Shown here: one piece after another, positions 6,009 through 64,000 of the stretch | Layout: every line of letters begins with the position of its first letter | How positions within the stretch are numbered: the first letter of the stretch is position 1 | Assembly (NCBI GenBank): GCA_028693695.1 | Contig: JAQUUV010000001.1 | Span: 959-64,958 of the forward strand | Origin: Syntrophomonas sp. | Lineage (GTDB): Bacteria; Bacillota; Syntrophomonadia; Syntrophomonadales; Syntrophomonadaceae | Reading direction: 5' to 3' | Length of the DNA: 64,000 nucleotides | Position numbers and translations under genes: made by a program | The notes under the pieces: model-generated | Seen by the model: the letters and a program-made list of their open reading frames with translations, nothing else | What the model was told of the DNA's origin: nothing | Database searches by the model: none

Positions 6009-7676
6009 CTACAAACTCTTCTTTTCCAAGTCTCTAAATTTATATTCGATGCTATTGATCCTTTGCTGAATATAGGCACTGTCACCTCTTTGCTCGGTCA
6101 GCAGCGTTTCGATCAAATTGATTTCCTGGTTCATATAGGTCAGAGCTTGGGCAATTAGATTATCGATCTCATTATTAATTTTTTGGTTTAGATCCGAGGT
6201 CAGGCGATGCAGGTTCTTATCGACTTCTTTGGGGATCTGGCGGACGAAATGGCGCCGGAATATATTTCGGAGGAAAACCATCGGGAACAGAAACCACAAT
6301 AGGTCCAGATGGAAATCGAAGGCCCGGCTTACCGAAATATCAGGCCGTTCCAGCTCACCGATGTTGATCTCCCATTGTTCCAGCTGGGGCTGCACCCCTA
6401 GAACCTGCTCCAGGTTGTGGCTCAGTCTTTCCCGAAAAGACTTCAGGTAAAAAGCCAGGTGCTTTTTGACCGTACTCAATAGTTCAAAGGACTTTTCCTC
6501 GTTGAGTAAAATCTCTTGCAGTTCGGAATGCAGCGACTGATTAAGCCAGTGCTCAAACTGCCGGGTTACGACATACAGATTACCTTTCCATCCACCAAAA
6601 GCTCTCGCGTATTCCTGGCTGAGCTTGGTTTCCAACTCCTTGCGGAAGCTATCCAGATAGACCTTTATATTTTCGCGAGTCTTCTCCTTATAACTGCCGC
6701 TGATCAGCAAAAGTTCGCGCCGGACAAAGGGCGAGTTTAAATGCTCATCCAAAATAGTCGCCTTAAGTTTACCTTTTTCCGAATCCTGTTGCAGGGAGGC
6801 CTGATAGGATATGTTCAAATAGGTGAGGCAGCTATTGGCCAGCGAGCCAATTTTATGCCGCAGTATAGATGCGTATTTTTTATCCCGATTAAGGGCAAAA
6901 GGCTGAAATATTCTTTGTTCCAGTTCGGTATTATAACGGCAGGTATCCTTATATGCCGAATACCTGAGGATTGGGAAATCCTGATTAAAAGCATTGCGAA
7001 GTACCTTTGCAATAAATAATTCGATTTGCTGCAGATGGTCCTCAGTGAAAAGATCAGTTTTGGTGATCACGATAGCAATCTCGGGGGAATACAGATAGAT
7101 CTCTTGCAGAAGACCGAGTTCATTTTCGGATATCGGCCTTTCCGCACTGATGACGAACAAGACCCCACCGGTTTCCGGGAACCAGCTGGTGGTGGTTTCG
7201 GTATTGTGCTGCCATACGCTGCCAATGCCCGGAGTATCCACCAATCTTAGGGCCTGAATATTCTGCAGAGCCGGCACCTCCAGATCGAGCACCCTAACCT
7301 GCTTGATATTACCCGGGTTGCCGGACTCAGAAACATAATCCGGGATAGCTTGGATGGCAATAATTCTAGTGTTGCCATCCAAGAAAGTTACAGTCGCTTT
7401 CTCTTGTTTACCGTATCGTATGCGGCTAATTACGGAGGTAACTGGGATATCGCCCACCGGCAACAGATCTTTATCTAAATAGGCGTTAAGAAAAGAACTT
7501 TTGCCAGCCTTAAACTGACCCAAAACCGCCACGTCCAGATATTGGTTCTGGTCGGCAAAATTATTAATGCTGCGCAGAGTTATAAGCAGGGAATGCAGTT
7601 TGAAATCAGCACACACGGACTGGATTTCGGCCAGCAATTCCTTGGCCTGGGTTATAATATTAGGTTCTATGGCCAT
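6009..7676 (-). CDS. Dynamin-family GTPase (bacterial dynamin-like protein)
   Basis: 555 aa. G1 GQFKAGKSSFLNA, G3 DTPGIGS, G4 TKTD, then a long helical stalk-like C-terminus. Confidence 0.85.
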   Translation of the reverse strand: MAIEPNIITQAKELLAEIQSVCADFKLHSLLITLRSINNFADQNQYLDVAVLGQFKAGKSSFLNAYLDKDLLPVGDIPVTSVISRIRYGKQEKATVTFLDGNTRIIAIQAIPDYVSESGNPGNIKQVRVLDLEVPALQNIQALRLVDTPGIGSVWQHNTETTTSWFPETGGVLFVISAERPISENELGLLQEIYLYSPEIAIVITKTDLFTEDHLQQIELFIAKVLRNAFNQDFPILRYSAYKDTCRYNTELEQRIFQPFALNRDKKYASILRHKIGSLANSCLTYLNISYQASLQQDSEKGKLKATILDEHLNSPFVRRELLLISGSYKEKTRENIKVYLDSFRKELETKLSQEYARAFGGWKGNLYVVTRQFEHWLNQSLHSELQEILLNEEKSFELLSTVKKHLAFYLKSFRERLSHNLEQVLGVQPQLEQWEINIGELERPDISVSRAFDFHLDLLWFLFPMVFLRNIFRRHFVRQIPKEVDKNLHRLTSDLNQKINNEIDNLIAQALTYMNQEINLIETLLTEQRGDSAYIQQRINSIEYKFRDLEKKSL

Positions 7677-7730
7677 GGTTTGATCACCCTCTTTACCGCT
7701 CCGATCAACTTAGGGACCCTAATTTTACCT

Positions 7731-9050
<1,320 letters not shown>

Positions 9051-9865
9051 CTAGGCTTGGAGCTAGATAAATGCAAAAATAAAGACTCCTATCCCAAAAG
9101 ATAGGAGCCATTAGCACAGCTGTTTCGCATGGTATGCGAGGTGAGCTCCATCACCTGTACAATATATAGTTAATCTTAGCTTATGCAAAATTTTATAAAA
9201 GACTAAGGAAATTATATCACTAACATCCTCTGTTTTACATGCATAGTTTATTTGCCTAAAATCTCTTTTACCTCAACTCCAGTCATGAATACAAAAGTTG
9301 CTTCAACCAAAATTTTATGCTGACCTTCTCAATCAGTCTTCTAAATATTTGTTCGTTGAACCGCTCAAGTAGAGACTTCCGCGTTGCAGGAACTGCCTTA
9401 ATTCATCTATCCGCTATAACGATTATCTGCTAGGGACTACCTTTCGTTAAAAGGTTTATGAATCGTTAAATTTTGCATACCCTTCAAGATGGCCTATTTA
9501 TAGGGATTTGGTATATCCAGTGTATGCCTCCTCTCGTTTAAATTTTACCGGATGCCAAGAATTAGCTAAATGGATAATGACTGTCGGTATACCCGGCAGC
9601 AGTGTCAATACCTAAAATGTTATGATCAACCCAATTATCCCTTAATCTTTGCATCAAGAAACTTCTTGCGTATACTTTCTTCTATTGTTTGTGGTAATCC
9701 TGCTAATGCCATGTACTCCTCGCTGTGCTCATCTATTCTTGGTTTATGGCTACCGATAGTCGTGGTATTTTGCAGCTAGTTTTATCTATTCTTCACTATT
9801 CTCTCCTATTCCGGCTACTCCAGGGCTAAAATGCACATTATTAGCTTAATATGCTGTTTGCTTGA

Positions 9866-22932: not shown

Positions 22933-23232
22933 AAATATGCTTTTTAACATGACCAGAAGATTCCAGTGCTCTTAAAATAAAACAAATCTGCCTAAATCGA
23001 CATGTGATGTGCTAAAATTTTAATTAGGAGTTTTCTTATCTGTCGATAGACAGACACCTTCTTGATTACCGGGAAATGACTAAGCAGTAGGTGTAGGAGA
23101 TACAATCGAATACATATACCAGGACTTCGAGTTTTGGATCCTAAAGGCTATGCCCACGGAGATAAAACCAATTAGTTTGCTGAGAAATCGGCAAGTTTTC
23201 CGTATTTGAGAAGAAGGCCATTATAACCGTTT

Positions 23233-32256: not shown

Positions 32257-32504
32257 CACTCTGCTTTTATTGTCCATCTACTTTAAACGGTATGAAATAT
32301 GGGTTATAATTTTATATTTCCCACTACAAAAACCATACTTTTATAAATTTCTTACAATCATTCAGTCGATGCAATTGCCTAATAATGATTTTTTGTTTTC
32401 GGGAAAGAACGGCTTAAACATGTTTCATGTTTACACAAAAAAATATGTAATAAGGCTATCGCATAATAGTCGCGCTTATTACATAAAAATACACACATTT
32501 ATTC

Positions 32505-32620
32505 ATTCTACATTGCACTCCTTTCCAAATTCGGGAGGCATACCAGTTTCCTAGCATACCCATAGGTTACTTTTCATGGCATTAATGCTTTAGAAAAAGC
32601 AACTCGAATTGCATTTATGT
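32505..32620 (-). promoter_or_regulatory. Moco (molybdenum/tungsten cofactor)-type riboswitch candidate
   Basis: The minus strand reads ..TTCGAGTTGC..CTAGGAAACTGGTATGCCTCCCGAATTTGGAAAGGAGTGCAATG. The GGAAAC, GCCUCCC and UGGAAAGGAG blocks keep the same order and spacing as the other two copies and as the E. coli moaA leader I recall (GCCUCCCGUAUCUGGAAAGGUG). The 5' block is less canonical. Confidence 0.55.
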
Positions 32621-32974
32621 TTGTTTTCATTTTTGTTAATGTTATTACCGAACTTTTTTATTGTCAATCCATAATGTGGTAAATACTATTTTATTGTCAA
32701 AACAAGGTTTGTATTACATAAATACTAAGAGATACTATTAGTACAGCAGAACAATTTATTTAACAGACTACCCCGGTATAAAGGCAATCCGTACCTAAAA
32801 GATCGAGGCGTCACCCTTTTCGATAGAAAAAGCCAGGCCCTTCAAACCCCTATGCCCCCCTATCATTATATTTTCTGAAAGGACATCAATTTAAGTCGTC
32901 AATAAATTCAAACATTGCAGGATTCCACATTTTTATGTCGAAATTGAACGCTGTAAACATATATACAACTAAAT

Positions 32975-33070
32975 ATACTCCGAGCCAGTTAACCTAAAGT
33001 GAAACCCAAGGTTTTCAGGACGATAGGGTTTGTCGGGAAACTGACATGCCTCCCAATGTGGAAAGGAGAA
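32975..33070 (+). promoter_or_regulatory. Moco (molybdenum/tungsten cofactor)-type riboswitch candidate
   Basis: ACTCCGAGCCAG..GTCGGGAAACTGACATGCCTCCCAATGTGGAAAGGAGAAG. All three conserved blocks are present (CCGAGCC, GGGAAAC, GCCUCCC-N4-UGGAAAGGAG), and CUCC/GGAG can close P1. A weak hairpin plus T-rich tail lies at 33092..33121. Confidence 0.7.
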
Positions 33071-33266
33071 GCTGAATTCGGCCAGATAACGGGCGGACTG
33101 CTTTTGCGGTTCGCCTTTCTTGTTAATTTGGTTGTGGTTGACTATTAAAAATAGTTTTTTTGCTCGGCATTTCCTTCTGCCGGGCTTTTGCTATTTCTGG
33201 AATCGACTACCTGCCAAGGTTTGCCATAGTAAGCCTTAAGAATTAAATAGACAAGGTGGGATAAAT

Positions 33267-48808: not shown

Positions 48809-48962
48809 TAGACTTATTTGCCATAGTAAATCCATGACAATATACTGCATTCAAATGCATGCTCCCCCCTGACCAGAAACACCTCAAAGCGCAAAACGCA
48901 TACTAGCACCCGACTTCCCTTGTAAAGAAAGTCTGGGCAACACAAATTGCCTTTACTGACCA

Positions 48963-49080
48963 GTAACTCCTTTCCAAGCAAGGGAGGCAAATCCGTTTCC
49001 CGATTTACCGTGCCGGTAAAGAAAACCGAGTCGGCTAAATCCCCATGGCCGAAGCTTTAGGCGAAGTAGCTTTGGAGCTA
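48963..49080 (-). promoter_or_regulatory. Moco (molybdenum/tungsten cofactor)-type riboswitch candidate
   Basis: The minus strand reads AGCTCCAAAGC..TTAGCCGACTCGG..AATCGGGAAACGGATTTGCCTCCCTTGCTTGGAAAGGAGTTAC. It lies upstream of a Mo/W-enzyme operon, which is the expected genomic context. Confidence 0.7.
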
Positions 49081-49365
49081 AACGTTTGAATATTATTTAG
49101 TTGTTTTCGAAATATTTTTATTATTCTTACAGGTATTATTCTTCATCCGGATGCAAACGAATAATAATATACACATCTATACATATATTAACATAACACA
49201 ACATAACATTACTAGATTACTTTTTATTTTAATTTAATAATGACTCGTCATATAAAAACTATACTCGACTTTACTTAACAGCATTAAAATGCTACAGAAT
49301 GAAATCGCTAGTATCCGCAGGATTGAGTGATCAATATTGTTCTAATTTATCTATAAAATCACTAA

Positions 49366-50599: not shown

Positions 50600-51562
50600 T
50601 TGAATCCCCCAGTCGCAGGTGTAAATAGCGATGCACATCTAATAGCAATGTTTTTGTCCAGTCGAAAAAGAAAATCAGCAAACACTGCCTATGTCTATTC
50701 TGGGGTTCTGAATGAATTTTTCGCCCTTTTGGGCAATAAATCTATCCGCACCATTACATATAGTGATCTGGTGGACTATTCCGAGTACCTGGCTGCGCCC
50801 GATTATGATCGTAATCCTGCAACGCTGGCAGTCAGCACCCAGAACCGCAAAATAGCCACTATTAAAAGCCTTTTTTCCTATGCTAAAAAAATCGGATATG
50901 TAACATTTAATCCGGCTGAACCCCTGGAAACAAAGCGGGTAGACTCTAAAATAGCCCAAAGGATTTTAATGGAGACAGAATTAGAAAGCATTGTCATGGC
51001 GGCTCAGGAGACAGGGAAACTATCTTTATTGGTTGTAATATTTTTCGCCTGTACCGGTTGCAGGGTAAGTGAATTGGCCAATGCGATGTGGAAATCCATA
51101 TTTATCGCACCTCAAGGAGAACGATGTATAACGATAACTGGTAAAGGAAACAAGGATCGGATTATCAAAATACCAGATTTGTTGTGGGATACAATATTAG
51201 ATTACCGGGAAGATAAGGGGCTTATATGTGGGATAGATGCGCAATCCTACTCTCCATTAATAGTAAATAAATTCGGGAACAGTATGTCTACCCAATCCAT
51301 CTGGAAAATAATTAAAGACGTAACGACCCGGTCTGGGGTAAAGAAAAATGTTTCCCCTCACTGGCTCAGACATACGTTTGCCACGGAGGTAGCTAAAAAT
51401 AAAAACAGTAATCTTTGGCAATTACAAAATGATTTAGGGCACAGCAGTATCCGAACCACAGAGGGATATGTTCATATAGCTCAAGGGATGGCCGAAACCA
51501 GTGTTGATCATCTTAATTACCTTCCTACTCTAGGAAAACATATTACCAAAAAAGACATTTAA
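50600..51562 (+). CDS. Tyrosine recombinase/integrase
   Basis: TGCRVSELANA (Arg), HWLRHTFATEV (H-x-x-R), LGHSSIRTTEGYVH (His, Tyr). TTG start. Confidence 0.85.
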   Translation: MNPPVAGVNSDAHLIAMFLSSRKRKSANTAYVYSGVLNEFFALLGNKSIRTITYSDLVDYSEYLAAPDYDRNPATLAVSTQNRKIATIKSLFSYAKKIGYVTFNPAEPLETKRVDSKIAQRILMETELESIVMAAQETGKLSLLVVIFFACTGCRVSELANAMWKSIFIAPQGERCITITGKGNKDRIIKIPDLLWDTILDYREDKGLICGIDAQSYSPLIVNKFGNSMSTQSIWKIIKDVTTRSGVKKNVSPHWLRHTFATEVAKNKNSNLWQLQNDLGHSSIRTTEGYVHIAQGMAETSVDHLNYLPTLGKHITKKDI

Positions 51563-56109: not shown

Positions 56110-56385
56110 GTGAGTATAATGCCTGTTATTCGTCCAGTTTCTGATTTACGAAATAAGACACCCGAAATTGAAGAAATATGTATCAAGGAACAAAAGCCAG
56201 TTTTCATCACCAAGAACGGAAATGGTCATCTGGTAGTTATGAGTCAAAGACTATATGAGGAACAGCAAGCACTTATGGAGTTATATGACAATCTGGATGA
56301 AGCCGAAGTCCAAAGCTCTCAGGGAGCCAAACGAATACCTCACCGTGAAGTCATGGCAAGGCTAAGGGCGCGACTTAATGGGTAA
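56110..56385 (+). CDS. Phd/YefM-type antitoxin
   Basis: PVIRPVSDLRNKTPEIEEICIKEQKPVFITKNGNGHLVVMS. Confidence 0.8.
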   Translation: MSIMPVIRPVSDLRNKTPEIEEICIKEQKPVFITKNGNGHLVVMSQRLYEEQQALMELYDNLDEAEVQSSQGAKRIPHREVMARLRARLNG

Positions 56386-56680
56386 ATATAGTGTTGAATA
56401 TTTGCCACTGGCTTACGATGATTTAGAAGATATTTTTACTTATATTATTGCTGATGACCCAGAAGCGGCGGAAAATCTTTTGAATGAGATTGATGCAGCT
56501 ATCCTTCATTTAGAAGAATTCCCTGATATGGGGGTCACCCCTAAAAACAGGCGATTGGCCAATAAGGGCTATAAAATACTCATTGTTAATGCCTACCTGG
56601 TTTTTTATGTTGTGGCTGGTGATATCGTAGAAATCAGGCGTATAGTTTCCAGTAAGCGAAACTATACTAAATTGCTTTAA
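56378..56680 (+). CDS. RelE/ParE-family toxin
   Basis: 8-nt overlap with the antitoxin gene. ..DDLEDIFTYIIADDPEAAENLLNEI..LEEFPDMG..YLVFYVVAGDIVEIRRIVSSKRNY. Confidence 0.8.
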   Translation: MGKYSVEYLPLAYDDLEDIFTYIIADDPEAAENLLNEIDAAILHLEEFPDMGVTPKNRRLANKGYKILIVNAYLVFYVVAGDIVEIRRIVSSKRNYTKLL

Positions 56681-56874
56681 AAAATGGTTTTTTAGAGCTT
56701 CCTGAGCATATTTAATTCTGAAACCAAGATTTATAACAATCTATGCAGAAGTTAATATGGATAACGCGAAGCTGATGAATCTTGTATTGCATATAATCAA
56801 TAAGCGCTTTCTGTTGGTAATCTGGCATCATCTATGACTTCAATTTATGTCAACGAAACCGTTCTCTTGATACT

Positions 56875-57933: not shown

Positions 57934-58190
57934 CTCTTCTCTTTTTCTTCACAAAACAACATCATCAGCCACGATCTAGCCCCATTCGTAAAATATAATC
58001 AATTAATATCTCATGACAGATATCCAGGCTTCCCATTATTAGCCTAATAGGCAGAAGCAAGCCATTATAAATTGGGCCAAATTTTTATAATTTAGCCTAA
58101 TCGATATATGTATAACTGGGAACTGGTAAGTGTCTATACCCTATTTGGATGGGTACTTTGAGTAGCAGTTTTTGCTTGATCCCTCTAAAA

Positions 58191-59243
58191 CTATTTAACT
58201 TTGTTTTTAAGTCTGTGCTGCCACTTTCCGTCCATCAGCGGAATTTCTTTTAGTTCAACCGTACCTTCCCAGCTATAGTTAACTGGCCAATTCCTAAATA
58301 TTTTCACAAATATGAATAATAATCTATAGCCTATAGGATATCCTGCTGGTTGCCATTCCTCCAATTGATTCAGTTCGACATGAACCTGATCCGCAATTTT
58401 TTCAAGCAGGTATTGACCTCCGGTTATTTTATCCGATGATATAAATATATCAAAGTAACCCCTGATACGCTGATTTTCAGGCAAATCCAGCAAATTGGGG
58501 AATCCGCCCGGAAAATTTAGCACAGCACTATTTGTATCCTTCACGATTTGAATTTGATCAACTATTCCTTCAGCATTACAGTGGATTTGTGTTTCGTTTT
58601 GCATCGTGGTTTTACCCGGTACTGCATCAAAGCATAAAGGATTTGCGCCATCGGGATTGAGAGCCGCAATGTTTAGCCGGGAACAATATCTTGCCAGGTA
58701 AGCGCGGTGTCCACTAATCAAAAGCGGGAGAGTTGCAGGTTCAAGGATGCGTCCATCCAGTGAGCAGTGTATCTGTGTGGTTTTACGGTATGCAAAGTCG
58801 AAGTCATTCATATAAACGAAAAATAGCTTCTTAGGTTTTTCTATGCCGCCGCCAACCGGAGCTAAAAGCGGAACAGGATGCTTGCAAGCACTTTTTTCTT
58901 CCACTTTCAACTCGTTCTTCCGGCCTTGAGCATCTGTGAAGATTAGCTGGACTTGCAGCCCGCTTTCAGTAATTTCGAAAAGGTTTTTATCGAAATGGGT
59001 CATTTTTGAATCCGCTATTCCGGTTCCGATACTAAAATTTTTATCCGGTATGATGCCAGCTTCATAGTAGACATCTACTTTTCCATTCTTCCGATAACGG
59101 AGCAGACGAATTCCTTTACCATTAACCGGGTCATCAAAGAGTTGCGGTTCGTAGCCTTCAAATTCTTCATTCCCGATAAAACTGATAACAGCAAGCCTTA
59201 TCATAGGTTCAAATTCAAAATGAAACGGAAGCACATATTTCAT
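58191..59243 (-). CDS. Hypothetical protein (350 aa)
   Basis: Long ORF. Start placed at the ATG at 59243, 7 nt after GGAGGGA. No recognisable motif. Confidence 0.6.
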   Translation of the reverse strand: MKYVLPFHFEFEPMIRLAVISFIGNEEFEGYEPQLFDDPVNGKGIRLLRYRKNGKVDVYYEAGIIPDKNFSIGTGIADSKMTHFDKNLFEITESGLQVQLIFTDAQGRKNELKVEEKSACKHPVPLLAPVGGGIEKPKKLFFVYMNDFDFAYRKTTQIHCSLDGRILEPATLPLLISGHRAYLARYCSRLNIAALNPDGANPLCFDAVPGKTTMQNETQIHCNAEGIVDQIQIVKDTNSAVLNFPGGFPNLLDLPENQRIRGYFDIFISSDKITGGQYLLEKIADQVHVELNQLEEWQPAGYPIGYRLLFIFVKIFRNWPVNYSWEGTVELKEIPLMDGKWQHRLKNKVK

Positions 59244-59307
59244 ATTGGTCCCTCCATTCCTATTTTTTTGTTTTTTCTCAATCACTAAATTAATACTCAG
59301 TAAACAT

Positions 59308-59937
59308 CTAAAGGGATTTTATAATAGCATAACTTTCGATAATTGCTCCTAATAGCATAAATATTAAGCCTATGCTAAATACAAATAATTCTTGTCTTGA
59401 AAGCCCAATACTTCTCCAGTTTTTAGTTATGGTTTCTTTCCCAACGGTTATTATTAATGAAATTTTGGCGGTTGCACAAAGGATAAACAGCTGCCCGGTC
59501 ATTTCCCACAGCCCCGCTCTGTGAAAAAGATCAAATGTTCTAATAAATCTATCCGCTAACGGTATCGCATCAGATACAGGCGAAAATGACCATGTTCCCA
59601 GAAAAACCGCATTAACTGAAATCAAACCGAAAAATGCAATATTCCCATAAGGCAAAAAATATTGTGCCTTATTACTTTTGGATGCCAAGGTATTGCCAAG
59701 GATTATTACTATAACTGAGATTAAATTATAAGAAAAGATCTGCAATGTTGAGATGGCCCAATTTGATGAAGTCTCCCAGTTATGAAGCGGATGCTTGCCG
59801 CACAAAATACCCTCCGGCAATAAATAATAACTTACAACGGTGATGGTAAAAAAAGTTATCAAAAAACAAATATAGGTGGTTATTATTCTCTCAGCAAGAC
59901 TGTCAGATGTCAGTTTCTTTTTAATGCTGTCAAACAT
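59308..59937 (-). CDS. Integral membrane protein (possibly SpoIIM/DUF95-like)
   Basis: 209 aa with 5-6 TM segments. Lies immediately upstream of 58191..59243 on the same strand. Confidence 0.5.
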   Translation of the reverse strand: MFDSIKKKLTSDSLAERIITTYICFLITFFTITVVSYYLLPEGILCGKHPLHNWETSSNWAISTLQIFSYNLISVIVIILGNTLASKSNKAQYFLPYGNIAFFGLISVNAVFLGTWSFSPVSDAIPLADRFIRTFDLFHRAGLWEMTGQLFILCATAKISLIITVGKETITKNWRSIGLSRQELFVFSIGLIFMLLGAIIESYAIIKSL

Positions 59938-59958: not shown

Positions 59959-60106
59959 GTATAGAAGTGATGTCATTTACGAATTCAATCGTCTTCCTCT
60001 CAATATGTTTCTTGAGTTCTTCAGGATGATCAAAATCCGGCTGCTCAGCCAGGGTAGACTCAATGATGGAATCCACTCCAGGAAGAGCCTGCGACAGTTT
60101 ATATTT
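59959..60106 (-). pseudogene. 3' fragment paralogous to the gene at 2068..2400
   Basis: GTATAGAAGTGATGTCATTTACGAATTCAAT..GCTGCTCAGCCAGGGTAGACTCAAT..GCGACAGTTTATATTTA aligns with 2095..2235. Homology ends exactly at an ATGGATAAT motif (60107..60115). Confidence 0.8.
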
Positions 60107-60176
60107 ATGGATAATACTACGCTTAAGTTGTTATTTATCAAATACCCAATATGCTTATAATCTTAAGTGATTGGAA

Positions 60177-60608
60177 TTACATTTTTATCATATCATTATC
60201 ATCAAACTCAAAGTTAGGCCCCCAAGCCACTTCCCAATAATATCCGTCAGGGTCTGAAAAATATGCGTGAAAGCCACCCCAAAAAACGTCTTGCGGCTCT
60301 TTGACAATAGTTGCCCCAGCTTTTCGTGCAAGTTCAATTACTTCTCTTACTTCTTCTTTTGTTTTAGCATTATAGGCAAGAGTAATACCACCAAACCCAG
60401 AAGAAATCTCTGGCGGATTGTCATTGTTAATGTCTTTCGCCAATAACTCAAGAGGATATAATTCAAGCTTGGTCCCGGATGTGCTGAAAAAAACCACCTC
60501 TGGATTGTTGCTCTTTTCATCTGTTTTAAAGCCAAGTCCGTCACGATAAAACTTGATTGCTTTCTCCATATTCCTGACACCTAAACAAATAATATTTAGT
60601 CTGTTCAT
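60177..60608 (-). CDS. VOC/glyoxalase-bleomycin-resistance-family protein
   Basis: NIICLGVRNMEKAIKFYRDGLGF..FWGGFHAYFSDPDGYYWEVAWGP. Confidence 0.85.
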   Translation of the reverse strand: MNRLNIICLGVRNMEKAIKFYRDGLGFKTDEKSNNPEVVFFSTSGTKLELYPLELLAKDINNDNPPEISSGFGGITLAYNAKTKEEVREVIELARKAGATIVKEPQDVFWGGFHAYFSDPDGYYWEVAWGPNFEFDDNDMIKM

Positions 60609-60846
60609 ATCTGTCCTCTCCTTCGTAAACTATAAATCATTAATATACCATGATATATAGACTTCGTATTATTAGCCAAATGTGCAGTTCCAAATAAACA
60701 TAATTGGTATATGGATAATCAGGAATTCTTCGATGGTGACGACAACCCCGTCCCCTTGTCACTCTTACAGCATTGCGTTTATCATCTGCCTACTAAATAT
60801 ATTGAAGAGTTATTGACGTTGTAAAACTTTCCATGTAGTCAGTACT

Positions 60847-61146
60847 TTATTCGCCATTTTCATCAGAGGCTTCGCATTCTGGCTTTTTATGATCTTCCAT
60901 CAAGCGAGTTGAGACTTCTTTTACCAGTTGCTCGATACATCCAAACGCTCGTTTTCCATCTTTATTATCTGGTATAGAATTGTGCAGTTCAATATCCGAA
61001 CAATCCATGTTATCTGCAAAAAAGGCGCTATAAAACGTCTTTACATCTACCTGCAAATCATCTTTATTAATTTCAAAAATAATGTTTCCATTCTCAGAGA
61101 AGGTATACTTATCATCAGATATCTGAAATTCGATTGTTCTTTTCAT
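60847..61146 (-). CDS. Small acidic hypothetical protein, translationally coupled partner of the PHP-ATPase gene
   Basis: 99-aa ORF whose start overlaps the last 32 nt of 61115..63511. GGAG/GGAAG lies upstream of the ATG. Confidence 0.55.
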   Translation of the reverse strand: MKRTIEFQISDDKYTFSENGNIIFEINKDDLQVDVKTFYSAFFADNMDCSDIELHNSIPDNKDGKRAFGCIEQLVKEVSTRLMEDHKKPECEASDENGE

Positions 61147-63511
61147 ATCGCTTCCATCTCCTCTTCAATGTGTCCAATCCACCGTCAATATGGGTAGAAA
61201 TAATATCAAGCACACTATATTCATCATCTTTATATTCAAGAGCACCCGATTGCACAACCATACCCACTTCTGTCTTCCCGATATAAATTACATTGTCTAC
61301 GTCGAGATTTACAATAAACTGGGGATTGTGCGTGACAATTATAACTTGCCTTCTTTCTCCCATTACTTTAAATCTGTTTAACAAATACTCTTTAATTGCC
61401 TTCTGCGATATATTGTCTTCTGGCTGGTCTATCAAATAAATTCCATAATGGTCACTCTCGTATGAGAGAAGATCAAAATATATTTTTGCATTAAACCCAT
61501 CAGATAGCTCCTGGGTTTTATCCATACCATGCATTGTTATGGTATACTTTTCTTTAAAATCCTCATCCAGCAGCTTCTTAATATCATCCTTTAACCTTTG
61601 TAGGGCTTCTGACGGAGATCCATCAAATCTCAGCAAAGCTTCGGCTAATTGTTCTCGCGTCATATCAAGAACGGACAAAGCTATATCTTTCTTAAACACT
61701 CTTTCAAACAGAGATTCAATATATTCGCTATCCACAGAAAAAGCACAAAGTCTGCTGTTAAATTCATACTCAAATACTCGATTGGTTTGTATCTCGATAT
61801 CTTTTCTGTGTATCTCTATCTTAGGCTTCACATTTTTTCTTCTTCTCAAAAGGAGTTCCACTATACGAGCAATAGTTCTTTCAATGCCCTCATTGTAAAA
61901 AGATAGTCTTTTCTGTGAATCTGAAACTGTTTGGGAATACCTTTGCTTGAAATCATTCATTACTGATTGAAAAGCACTGATTTTCGCATTTTCAACATCT
62001 ACAACCACTTTCTTGGCATCGTATTCCTTTTCCAATTTCTCTAAGATAGTTTCAACTTCCTGTAAGGTTTTCACATCAGATTCTTCAATCCATTGGTCGC
62101 CTTCTATAGTCTTCACAGACTCAATGACTGTTCTAATATTACTGCTGATTGCGCCTAATCCCTGTGCTTTCTTGTTGTTTCTTGATGGCTGTCCAACAAA
62201 GGTCAAGCTTTCTGCTAGCACTCCATCCAAATCAACAATTTGAAATGACCCTAAATTTTCTTCAATATCGTCAAGAGCAAATTCTTCTTCTATATAAACG
62301 AAGATTTTATTTAACTCACGCTGTACCACTTGACGATATGGGTCCGGATTAATTGCAGCGGGATAGTAGTTTTTAAGGAATTCATCTGTTTTAATCTTGG
62401 ATTCCTCAAACTTTTCTCGCACTTCGCCCTGCATATCAAATCCAAAAATTTGGTCTGCTGTAAGGCTAGTTTGAATCTCAACCCCATTACTTCGAAGATA
62501 TCTGTCATAGCTTATAGTCAAAGTTTGCTTTATCTGTTTACTTTGTTTTTTTCTATATCCAGTCAACTTGTGAAGCAGAAGTGATTTTCCAATAGAGTTG
62601 TCACCAATGATGACATTCAATCCTCTTGAAAGTGGAATGTTGATTTCCACTCTATTTATTGTCATCTCAATCTGAGAAAGATACACTGCCGAAGGATTGA
62701 AGAAACTATTTACTGTTTTGATTCTTCGGTAATCGGTAATTGCCATAACAAGCCCCCTAAATGAGGGCAAGCATTTCATATATGTATATATGAATTCTGA
62801 GGTATCTTCAGATGTTTCTTTTGGATACACACTCCAGCAATGGCAATCAGTCCCTGTAATAAAGCGAATAGATTCTTTCATTCCTGTTTTTTCCAAATAA
62901 CTCTTATTAAATACCTCGTTTTTCTTATTCCTAAACTCAAAGGCCTCGAAGTAATCTGTATATACAAATTCTTGGAATCGGTCGGCTCCAACTGTATTCG
63001 CATCGCTCTTTCTAGGAGCATTACTGGTCAATGAATTCTTTTGATGGGCAATCAAAATAGTATCCAAATTAATTTGTCTAAGAATATCTAGAAATTTCCC
63101 TTCCGAAAATGCCATATTGCGGTCATATGTTACATCACCTTTTTCATCAAGAAGAGTATCCGAAATCTTTTTGATTTGTTCTTCTGAACTATCATTAAAT
63201 ATAGCTATAACATGCACTACAGGGGCAGCCGTATCACCTTCAAATTCAACAGAAAACTCTACTCCTGGAAATACTTTGACGATAGAGCAACCGTCTTGTT
63301 GCTCATTTTTTTTTAATGCAGCATACATATCATAGTTAAAAGCATCATGGTCTGTAATTGCACACATCTGAACACCATTCTCGGTCAATTTTTGAACCAA
63401 TACACCGATATTTTCGAGAGTATTAAATTTTACTTTATCGCCATCTTTTCCTTTAGAATAGATGGAGTGGATGTGTAAATCTAACTTGTAGCCAGCTTCA
63501 ACAACTTTCAT
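61115..63511 (-). CDS. PHP-domain / ABC-type (SMC/OLD-like) ATPase fusion protein, Ppl-like candidate defence protein
   Basis: N-terminal PHP motifs LDLHIHSIYS, AITDHD, PGVEF, IAHQ, GTDCH. Then Walker A IIGDNSIGKSLL, a long coiled-coil insert, signature-like LSDGFNAK, Walker B IYLIDQPEDNIS and H-loop IIVTHNP. Confidence 0.75.
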   Translation of the reverse strand: MKVVEAGYKLDLHIHSIYSKGKDGDKVKFNTLENIGVLVQKLTENGVQMCAITDHDAFNYDMYAALKKNEQQDGCSIVKVFPGVEFSVEFEGDTAAPVVHVIAIFNDSSEEQIKKISDTLLDEKGDVTYDRNMAFSEGKFLDILRQINLDTILIAHQKNSLTSNAPRKSDANTVGADRFQEFVYTDYFEAFEFRNKKNEVFNKSYLEKTGMKESIRFITGTDCHCWSVYPKETSEDTSEFIYTYMKCLPSFRGLVMAITDYRRIKTVNSFFNPSAVYLSQIEMTINRVEINIPLSRGLNVIIGDNSIGKSLLLHKLTGYRKKQSKQIKQTLTISYDRYLRSNGVEIQTSLTADQIFGFDMQGEVREKFEESKIKTDEFLKNYYPAAINPDPYRQVVQRELNKIFVYIEEEFALDDIEENLGSFQIVDLDGVLAESLTFVGQPSRNNKKAQGLGAISSNIRTVIESVKTIEGDQWIEESDVKTLQEVETILEKLEKEYDAKKVVVDVENAKISAFQSVMNDFKQRYSQTVSDSQKRLSFYNEGIERTIARIVELLLRRRKNVKPKIEIHRKDIEIQTNRVFEYEFNSRLCAFSVDSEYIESLFERVFKKDIALSVLDMTREQLAEALLRFDGSPSEALQRLKDDIKKLLDEDFKEKYTITMHGMDKTQELSDGFNAKIYFDLLSYESDHYGIYLIDQPEDNISQKAIKEYLLNRFKVMGERRQVIIVTHNPQFIVNLDVDNVIYIGKTEVGMVVQSGALEYKDDEYSVLDIISTHIDGGLDTLKRRWKRYEKNNRISDI

Positions 63512-64000
63512 CGCATATTCTCCTTTTCTATCCTTTAGAATTTAAATTAATATTTACAGCGTCATTACCATCCAACCCAACTACCAGCGATTTCTCCATA
63601 TTGAAACCAACACAAATTTCCCATTATGGTACTGACCTGCCATTTGGTGAGTTTCCCATTATTGCTATAACGAGTTAAATCTTGAACTGCCGGTTATTAG
63701 CCAAATGTGCAGCTCCAAATATGGATAATGCGAAGCTCTGAAGCCTTTTTCCTACTCAGTATAAGAACTGTAAGCGTCAAACAAAGTGGATAGAAAATGG
63801 CAAAACCCAGTATAACAGGTATATGGAGAATGCCCGAAAAAGGCTGTCCAATTTACCATAAGCTTTTTCAAAAAAAGATGCCCATTTTATCTTTTACTAA
63901 GGGTCTTGGTTTCCGCACTCCCTAATCCTTATAATTCATTATGTACAACATAAACAGGGCTGAAGGCAAAACCCCTTCACGTAGCCCGATACGACTGATC

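Follow-up and report, generated by a model that had tools for sequence, protein, structure and literature searches.

A two-gene module of Bacillota pairs a predicted PHP–ABC ATPase enzyme with a translationally coupled acidic partner

What kind of system is encoded when the gene for a large enzyme, apparently a PHP phosphoesterase joined to an ABC ATPase, carries within its last codons the start of a second gene for a small acidic protein? The question is raised by two minus-strand genes of a Syntrophomonas sp. metagenome-assembled genome (MAG), which encode a 798-aa protein (hereafter the enzyme) and a 99-aa protein (the partner) and are exact protein matches to the 'hypothetical' entries PHZ03_00355 and PHZ03_00350 of that MAG, respectively. 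Both lie in a 64,000-nucleotide stretch (contig JAQUUV010000001.1 of assembly GCA_028693695.1, positions 959 to 64,958), the whole of which we call the window and whose own numbering is used throughout. An initial annotation, made from the letters of the window alone, had likened the enzyme to the anti-phage protein Ppl and had proposed that a two-gene version, if conserved, would be a variant of that system. The features of the gene pair are as follows.

61115..63511 (−): enzyme gene, a 798-aa fusion of a PHP phosphoesterase and an SMC-type ABC ATPase and the putative effector (open reading frame (ORF), AlphaFold2 (AF2) model, motif conservation)
62702..63511 (−): predicted PHP domain, about residues 1-270 (ligands H13, H15, D54/H55, E85, H100, H156, D222 and H224)
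62372..62680 (−): predicted N-terminal lobe of the ABC ATPase, about residues 278-380 (Walker A G303-S310, Q-loop Q361)
61832..62344 (−): helical or short coiled-coil insertion between the ATPase lobes, about residues 390-560 (AF2 helices, fold matches)
61136..61789 (−): predicted C-terminal lobe of the ABC ATPase, about residues 575-792 (LSDG 669-672, IDQPED 694-699, H728 and the conserved C-terminal KRRWKRYEK)
60847..61146 (−): acidic partner gene, 99 aa (ORF, homologs, dN/dS ratio, AF2 model)
61115..61163 (−): dual-coding junction, with a Shine-Dalgarno (SD)-like GAGGAG at 61158-61163 and the partner ATG at 61144-61146, inside the enzyme codons ...RRWKRYEK...

The two ORFs share 61115..61146, a 32-nt overlap, and the partner has an isoelectric point (pI) of 4.49, in agreement with the small, acidic, translationally coupled protein of the initial annotation. 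The same arrangement recurs well beyond the window. In 40/40 loci the partner ATG is formed by the TAT of the invariant Tyr789 of the enzyme and the initial G of the codon that follows (Glu, Asp or Gly), and an SD-like 4-mer lies 5-16 nt before that ATG, inside the codons of the conserved ..RRWKRY.. motif. Enzyme and partner genes overlap by 17, 23, 29, 32 or 35 nt, the length varying because the enzyme tail after Tyr-Glu-Lys varies in length, and their relative frame is always the same. A partner was present in every intact locus examined, including that of R. bromii and those of five very distant members (27-34% identity), so that the conserved two-gene version supposed by the initial annotation exists, with a small gene downstream of the PHP-ATPase gene in all 40 intact loci when judged by position. 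At one R. bromii-type locus (L045) the enzyme as called is 745 aa long and the overlap with the partner gene is gone, which may be a sign of decay.

Overlapping small ORFs also lie beside enzyme homologs of 87% and 63% identity, and homologs of the partner itself were found at 60-81% identity. Outside the overlap the partner shows a dN/dS ratio of 0.20-0.26. Partner and enzyme distances are strongly correlated (Mantel r = 0.925; none of 2000 permutations reached that value), and the partner is the faster-diverging of the two, with a mean identity of 50% versus 65% for the enzyme within the clade of short partners. Given its homologs, its dN/dS ratio and the position kept in all 40 loci, the 99-aa partner is, as far as sequence can tell, a real gene rather than a chance ORF, obligatory, translationally coupled to the enzyme gene and co-inherited with it.

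A clue to what the partner does comes from a sister clade, whose enzymes are 43-47% identical to that of the window and whose partners are 213-230 aa long. A profile of the short partners matches residues 1-92 of 16/16 long partners (E 5e-17 to 5e-11), while the C-terminal half of the long partners matches Pfam Peptidase_S24 (E 3e-19 and 1e-22) and is placed by PHROGs in the CI-like repressor and UmuD families. All 16 long partners retain A(A/V)CAG(D/N)G, a cleavage-site motif like that of LexA, together with the nucleophilic Ser of G-x-S-M-(E/A)-P and the Lys of (M/I)-C-K-(R/Q/K), the general base. These matches indicate that in one derived clade the partner domain of ~90 aa is fused to a complete predicted LexA-type S24 autopeptidase, and no other observation bears as strongly on the function of the partner. 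The partner of the window ends after the N-terminal domain and an acidic tail and has no S24 domain. In a neighbour-joining tree of the enzymes, rooted on the PHP-ATPase family TrlF and built without bootstrap support, short partners occupy all deep branches and the S24 fusion forms one derived clade, within which the R. bromii module is nested yet has a short partner again. The topology suggests that S24 is a modular sensor, gained by a partner that already existed and lost again in some cases.

The partner domain itself has so far no recognizable relatives. No family match was obtained in Pfam, NCBIfam, PADLOC or PHROGs. The AF2 model (pLDDT 84.7) shows a folded βββ-α-β-α domain (residues 1-88) followed by a disordered acidic tail (residues 91-99); it contains no helix-turn-helix, and its best fold matches, in the PDB (E 0.24) and in BFVD (E 0.077), are not significant, so that no function can be transferred to it. 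Acidity is a family trait, the pI of whole partners being 4.2-5.0 and that of the N-terminal domain 4.3-5.5 in all loci but one (6.6). Because of this acidity and the lack of a helix-turn-helix in the model, the partner is unlikely to bind DNA. It is also very improbable that the partner is a transcriptional autorepressor of its own operon, with the N-terminal domain serving as a LexA/CI-type DNA-binding domain rather than binding protein: the domain does sit where the DNA-binding domain of LexA and CI precedes S24, but it is acidic in essentially all members, its modelled fold lacks a winged helix as well as a helix-turn-helix, it matches no DNA-binding domain by fold or family, a repressor gene coupled downstream of its target gene would be atypical, and no conserved operator-like repeat accompanies the module.

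In the enzyme, the translation contains both sets of motifs quoted in the initial annotation, namely those of a PHP phosphoesterase (H13-I-H15, D54-H55-D56, E85, H100, H156 and D222-C223-H224) and those of an ABC ATPase (GDNSIGKS, 303-310; LSDGFNAK, 669-676; LIDQPEDNIS, 693-702; VTHNP, 726-730). Conservation was measured on an alignment of 108 enzyme sequences with identities down to 24%. Invariant in it are the PHP ligands H13, H15, D54, H55, E85, D222 and H224, the ABC residues G303, N305, G308, K309, Q361, G672, D695, Q696, D699 and H728, and, at the C-terminus, R785 and Y789; H100, H156 and E698 are kept in at least 90% of the homologs, and S670 is conserved. With these residues invariant or nearly so, both predicted activities, PHP and ABC ATPase, are evidently under selection.

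Family profiles recognize the enzyme only in part. Pfam AAA_21 matches residues 667-732, within the C-terminal lobe only, at 28.3 bits, just over its gathering score of 27, whereas Pfam PHP reaches 20.5 bits, under its gathering score of 26.4; ABC_tran and SMC_N give weak matches at residues 289-345. Among the hidden Markov model and PADLOC checks suggested by the initial annotation, then, the AAA-type ATPase was detected above threshold, and the Pfam PHP and Ppl models gave sub-threshold or partial matches. In NCBIfam, the PHP domain weakly matches 3′,5′-nucleoside bisphosphate phosphatase and RNase RNM. The top PADLOC match is PDC-M49A, restricted to residues 9-123, followed by the ATPase portions of GajA, AriA, mad3 and Ppl, with a weak match to PtuA as well; a literature search found no paper on PDC-M49.

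The AF2 model of the enzyme (mean pLDDT 91.3, pTM 0.77) consists of a PHP barrel (about residues 1-270) and an ABC head whose lobes are parted by four long helices (390-418, 446-470, 477-526 and 531-559). Foldseek aligned the N-terminal part with the PHP phosphoesterase 3o0f (E 8e-7) and the PHP domain of Pol III alpha (4iqj), and the rest with the heads of Smc, RecN, cohesin, AriA of PARIS, JetC of Wadjet, the retron-IA ATPase and Rad50, among which the Smc, RecN, AriA and Rad50 heads carry coiled-coil stubs. Since the Pfam PHP score lies below the gathering score, the assignment to the PHP superfamily rests on motifs and on the modelled fold, which agree. The ABC head, as modelled, is of the SMC/Rad50 type, with Walker A, Q-loop, signature, Walker B, D-loop, H-loop and helical insert all in place. 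The architecture proposed in the initial annotation, a PHP domain and an SMC-like ABC ATPase split by a helical insert, is thus upheld by motifs, alignment, AF2 and Foldseek. A profile search of the PDB with the enzyme returned 0 matches by sequence, and the fold search of the PDB found no solved structure with the whole architecture. Membership in the OLD nuclease family (ATPase plus TOPRIM), the other label attached to the enzyme in the initial annotation, was rejected: no TOPRIM match was found in Pfam, NCBIfam or PADLOC, and the fold matches are the Smc, RecN, AriA, JetC and Rad50 heads. The JGI label 'OLD family' on homologs of the enzyme reflects the AAA_21-type ATPase only.

How widespread is the pair? 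An exhaustive phmmer search with the enzyme returned 249 representatives (50%-identity clusters) at E ≤ 1e-30, nearly all of them 760-830 aa long and matching end to end, down to ~27% identity. A pattern-limited scan of one genome per species (185,579 species genomes) gave 37 loci, which is a lower bound. All 37 are in Bacillota, in hosts that include Lachnospiraceae, Ruminococcus, Oscillospiraceae, Acutalibacter, Sporomusa, Phascolarctobacterium, Anaerosporobacter and Robinsoniella. By its profile scores and end-to-end matches the enzyme family is separate from Ppl and TrlF and uncatalogued, with ~250 clusters at 50% identity and a Bacillota host at every sampled locus. The exact 99-aa R. bromii-type partner is indexed in ~2,100 blocks of the contig collection, and the module is very common in human-gut metagenomes. 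BLAST searches of phages and plasmids returned no close enzyme homologs, only distant TrlF-type or C-terminal ATPase matches, and so gave no sign that this exact family is phage-borne. The two-gene module is absent from PADLOC v2.0.0, and annotation pipelines built on that release would miss it. In a literature search whose coverage was incomplete, no account of a PHP-ATPase with a coupled partner or an S24 fusion came up, so that an earlier description may exist.

The genes around the module were surveyed qualitatively (~150 nearest neighbours at ~30 loci). PADLOC matches among them comprise Avs4, BrxL, type I and III restriction-modification systems, AbiLi, mad2 of MADS, SspH, AriA, PDC-S02, PDC-S22 and PDC-S41, and Pfam matches include serine recombinases (6), Mutator transposases (3), FtsK/SpoIIIE and SLFN-like helicases. 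Across the ~30 loci the module has no conserved third gene. In individual cases the module adjoins an Avs4-like 1371-aa NACHT protein followed by Tn7-like TnsA and AAA_22 genes (L001, 1804-5919 and 10073-13662) or a pair of a Pycsar-like cyclase and PycTM (L052, 4277-6208), or has a D12 methyltransferase and an AAA_15/AAA_21 ATPase nearby (L051, 754-3256). On R. bromii-type contigs (L042-L045) it lies at 6654-9300, within a hypervariable island; from strain to strain, Nuc_deoxyrib_tr, Macro, SLFN-helicase and Cas9 genes replace one another there.

Our preferred reading, which we hold with about even confidence, is that the pair constitutes a self-contained, horizontally mobile module that acts as an anti-phage or anti-mobile-DNA system, or as a toxin/immunity-like one. 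The enzyme would be the effector, its PHP domain serving as a nuclease attached to an SMC/Rad50-type head, a single-chain analogue of the logic of Mre11-Rad50/SbcCD, in which ATP-driven dimerization of the heads on nucleic acid would position the PHP nuclease for cleavage. Synthesis of the partner would keep pace with that of the enzyme, since the last codons of the enzyme gene contain the ribosome-binding site and start codon of the partner gene; the partner would bind the enzyme and keep it switched off, in the manner of an immunity protein, an antitoxin or a DNA mimic, until removed by a trigger. For a protein that is co-made and co-inherited with the enzyme, acidic, and located where LexA and CI have their DNA-binding domain, the simplest model is that it binds and gates the enzyme. 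In the S24 clade the most likely trigger would be RecA*- or stress-stimulated self-cleavage at the Ala-Gly site, detaching the partner domain from the dimerizing peptidase domain and so releasing or switching the enzyme; LexA-like cleavage independent of RecA is known (PMC7101444). The partner of the window lacks S24, so the trigger there must differ, and candidates would be turnover of the partner after host shut-off or its displacement by a phage component. What the analysis shows is the identity of the domains, the conserved catalytic residues, the obligatory coupling, the co-inheritance, the fusion to S24 and the variable surroundings rich in defence and mobile-element genes; the nuclease activity, the physical binding, its inhibitory direction, the trigger and phage protection we infer.

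Several points weigh against this reading. A defence function is suggested by genomic context, from a survey that is qualitative in kind. Cleavage of S24, the trigger that can be proposed in the most concrete terms, is inapplicable at the window locus itself, whose partner has no such domain. The direction of regulation could be the reverse of the one proposed: in UmuD, S24 cleavage activates rather than releases, and by analogy an opposite polarity, in which cleavage of the partner activates the enzyme, is possible. The PHP domain appears closest to a TrlH/RNase AM-like subgroup of phosphatases and exoribonucleases, and this weak affinity for the 3′,5′-bisphosphate phosphatase/RNase AM subgroup means that it may act on RNA or nucleotides instead of DNA. 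Finally, for the most distant partners (L048-L052, whose enzymes show 27-34% identity), homology to the partner of the window was not found, hmmsearch returning nothing and hhalign a probability of 3%; in these members a small ORF is kept in position, size and coupling only.

A bolder extension of the preferred reading, tentative and in our view rather doubtful, is that the partner domain represents an unrecognized protein-binding gate, that the S24 clade would provide the first LexA-type self-cleavage controlling an effector enzyme by protein–protein release instead of transcription, and that the short form of the window would be an ancestral, S24-less switch that answers to another trigger. 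The LexA-type S24 domain is the best-understood bacterial damage sensor, and if the extension were true, abortive infection or DNA degradation would in the S24 clade be set off post-translationally, by a trigger that senses RecA*. With its co-translated partner, joined in one clade to a LexA-type S24 domain, the module offers a handle on the mechanism and trigger of PHP-ATPases, and the hypothesis is addressable at single residues, namely the Ala-Gly site, the Ser-Lys dyad, the PHP ligands and Walker A/B. As the module is frequent in abundant human-gut Bacillota, it could also influence phage–host dynamics in the gut.

The same observations can be read in other ways. The pair may be an addiction module (toxin–antitoxin) that stabilizes a mobile element or cassette and has no immunity role, with the PHP-ATPase as toxin and the acidic partner as a labile antitoxin. 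We consider this unlikely, although a small acidic protein tightly coupled to a putative nuclease fits it, the array around the pair in the window holds a Phd/RelE pair (56110..56680), recombinases and transposases adjoin the module in other genomes, and the partner evolves faster than the enzyme (50% versus 65% mean identity). Many of the neighbours are, however, dedicated defence systems and not only backbone genes of mobile elements, and a 798-aa ATP-dependent machine would be more elaborate than a simple toxin usually is. Moreover, one module could serve both addiction and defence by abortive infection, so that this alternative overlaps with the defence module that we favour.

A lower probability still is assigned to an accessory DNA-repair or end-processing nuclease, that is, a single-chain analogue of SbcCD/Mre11-Rad50 which the partner activates or targets, the partners of the S24 clade being matured by SOS cleavage as UmuD is to UmuD′. 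The union of a phosphoesterase with a Rad50/RecN-like head carrying a coiled coil is what such a nuclease would look like, S24 is the canonical SOS sensor, and PHROGs matches the long partners to UmuD-like proteins too. Against it stand the patchy distribution (at least 37 loci in 185,579 species genomes, from the pattern-limited scan), neighbourhoods that differ from locus to locus with no repair genes conserved alongside, and the setting in the window, a low-GC island with mobile elements close by.

That setting is an accessory array at the right-hand end of the window. GC content is 33-41% from ~49 to 64 kb versus 42-55% across most of the remaining window, in line with the TA-rich accessory surroundings described in the initial annotation, and its flanking dispersed junction motif was recovered as well: two exact copies of the 19-mer CTGCACATTTGGCTAATAA, at 60669-60687 and 63694-63712 (− strand), lie on either side of the gene pair, where 0.04 matches are expected by chance. 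Both exact copies extend into repeats of ~36-44 nt, and a third copy of the 19-mer, with 3 mismatches, lies at 58036. Two short dispersed repeat families, AGCTTCGCRTTATCCATA and TTGGAGCTGCACATTTGGCTAATAA, separate small, mostly minus-strand accessory genes. The repeats are located as follows.

63694..63737 (−): junction repeat, copy ~180 nt upstream of the enzyme gene, AGCTTCGCATTATCCATATTTGGAGCTGCACATTTGGCTAATAA (repeat search)
60669..60704 (−): junction repeat, downstream copy, between the partner gene and a glyoxalase-family cassette at 60177..60608 (repeat search)
56756-56773, 58036-58071, 60106-60123, 60669-60704 and 63694-63737: dispersed repeats of the accessory array

Neither the dispersed repeats nor the junction repeat were found in the 45 other loci searched; the junction repeat therefore belongs to this genome and is not carried along with the two-gene module. 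The repeats could serve as recombination sites, whether of the attC type or another, as promoters or as 5′-UTR elements. The array contains the Phd/RelE pair, the glyoxalase cassette and several orphan proteins. In the Phd/RelE pair, a Phd-family antitoxin gene (56110-56385, +) overlaps a RelE/StbE-family toxin gene (56378-56680, +), on the strand opposite to most cassettes. An orphan pair, encoding a 364-aa protein (58191-59285, −) and a 209-aa probable membrane protein (59308-59937, −), lies between two junction repeats and has no Pfam or NCBIfam family beyond a faint DUF6463 match. At the edge of the array, and convergent with it, is a gene for a Xer-like tyrosine recombinase (50600..51562, +). 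A classical integron was rejected, as this sole recombinase is Xer-like and scores 71.7 bits with the integron integrase model TIGR02249 against a cutoff of 265. The array looks like a cassette array, yet it belongs to a Bacillota genome and lacks IntI.

Downstream of the partner gene, ~85 nt past its stop codon, an imperfect GC-rich hairpin GTGACAAGGGGACGGGGTTGTCGTCAC (~60736-60762, −) without a T-run, which was left unflagged by the terminator scan, may be a terminator or processing site of the two-gene transcript. Scans of 60.5-64 kb for promoters and terminators gave counts not clearly above chance (14 promoter-like sites versus 12.0 ± 3.6, and 5 terminator-like sites versus 2.0 ± 1.6). 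Elsewhere in the window there are a fluoride riboswitch (9095-9164, −) and four molybdenum/tungsten cofactor (Moco) riboswitches (23113-23232, +; 32502-32621, −; 32966-33084, +; 48951-49089, −), an unusually high density of the latter for 64 kb; the last copy lies at the left edge of the low-GC accessory region.

Each half of the module can be compared with systems that are already known. The partners of the sister clade resemble LexA, lambda CI and UmuD in their S24 domain, Ala-Gly site and Ser-Lys dyad, and share with them the order of an effector-binding N-terminal domain, an Ala-Gly linker and S24. The N-terminal domain, unlike that of LexA, is not a DNA-binding domain by its predicted features but an acidic, unclassified α/β fold, co-encoded and co-evolving with the enzyme. 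Colicin/immunity and type II toxin–antitoxin pairs resemble the module in that an acidic protein of ~90-100 aa is encoded directly downstream of, and co-expressed with, a nuclease gene. The partner shows no sequence or fold similarity that we could find to known immunity proteins or antitoxins, however, and the putative toxin is in this case a large ATP-dependent machine.

The enzyme recalls Mre11-Rad50/SbcCD, in which a metal-dependent phosphoesterase likewise works with an ABC ATPase carrying a coiled-coil insert, and Rad50 heads are among its fold matches. It differs in that the phosphoesterase has a PHP rather than a calcineurin-like fold, that both activities are predicted in one chain and that its longest helix spans only ~50 residues; the module genes, moreover, are not housekeeping genes and their contexts are variable. 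Its head also resembles those of PARIS and other SMC-head ATPases (Wadjet JetC, retron-IA, Gabija GajA and Septu PtuA), with AriA (8v46, 8ux9), JetC and retron-IA (9n6b) among the structures matched. The module, known from sequence and models, can be likened to PARIS-type logic, in which an ATPase scaffold restrains a nuclease until triggered, but the presumed nuclease would be a PHP domain in cis rather than a TOPRIM or HNH protein in trans, and the small, acidic, non-enzymatic protein has no counterpart in PARIS-type systems.

Among named families the best score was obtained with TrlF (NCBIfam NF045780), at 147 bits (E 9.6e-43) against a cutoff of 350, residues 8-560 aligning to positions 6-582 of a 944-residue model; the Spaf_1101 family (NF045781) reached 76.8 bits against a cutoff of 475, and both assignments were rejected. 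TrlF has the same order of PHP domain and ABC ATPase and is also found in plasmid or accessory DNA, while its proteins are longer (862-1013 aa versus 798 aa). Two annotated TrlF genes, on S. saprophyticus pSSAP1 (L046, 7983-9212) and A. tumefaciens pAt1 (L047, 1485-3418), are single plasmid genes and, unlike the family of the window, have no overlapping small ORF downstream. The neighbours of one encode a SAP-domain protein and an Fst toxin; the other immediately follows, on its downstream side, an AbiEi/AbiEii pair. No published account of TrlF function was found in a literature search.

Ppl, to which the initial annotation had likened the enzyme, is mainly proteobacterial. It resembles the enzyme in joining PHP and ATPase in one polypeptide and in its occurrence in accessory regions (it is the 'Gao_Ppl' of DefenseFinder). 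Membership of that family did not hold: the enzyme reaches 44 bits with the NCBIfam model NF042955, whose cutoff is 1000, and only residues 655-788, the C-terminal ~130 residues or so, align (to model positions 753-881), while the PADLOC Ppl model (PDLC02208) gives E 3.7e-8 over residues 654-788 only. Ppl is a validated single-gene anti-phage system, studied in E. coli, whose mechanism and trigger are uncharacterized (PMC11482910). Where Ppl is encoded by a single gene and was studied in E. coli, the family of the window has a coupled partner in 40/40 loci and a host in Bacillota at every sampled locus. By sequence comparison, therefore, the enzyme is of a kind already known, the PHP-plus-ATPase class of Ppl and TrlF, and what appears to be new is its obligatory coupled partner and the fusion of that partner to S24.

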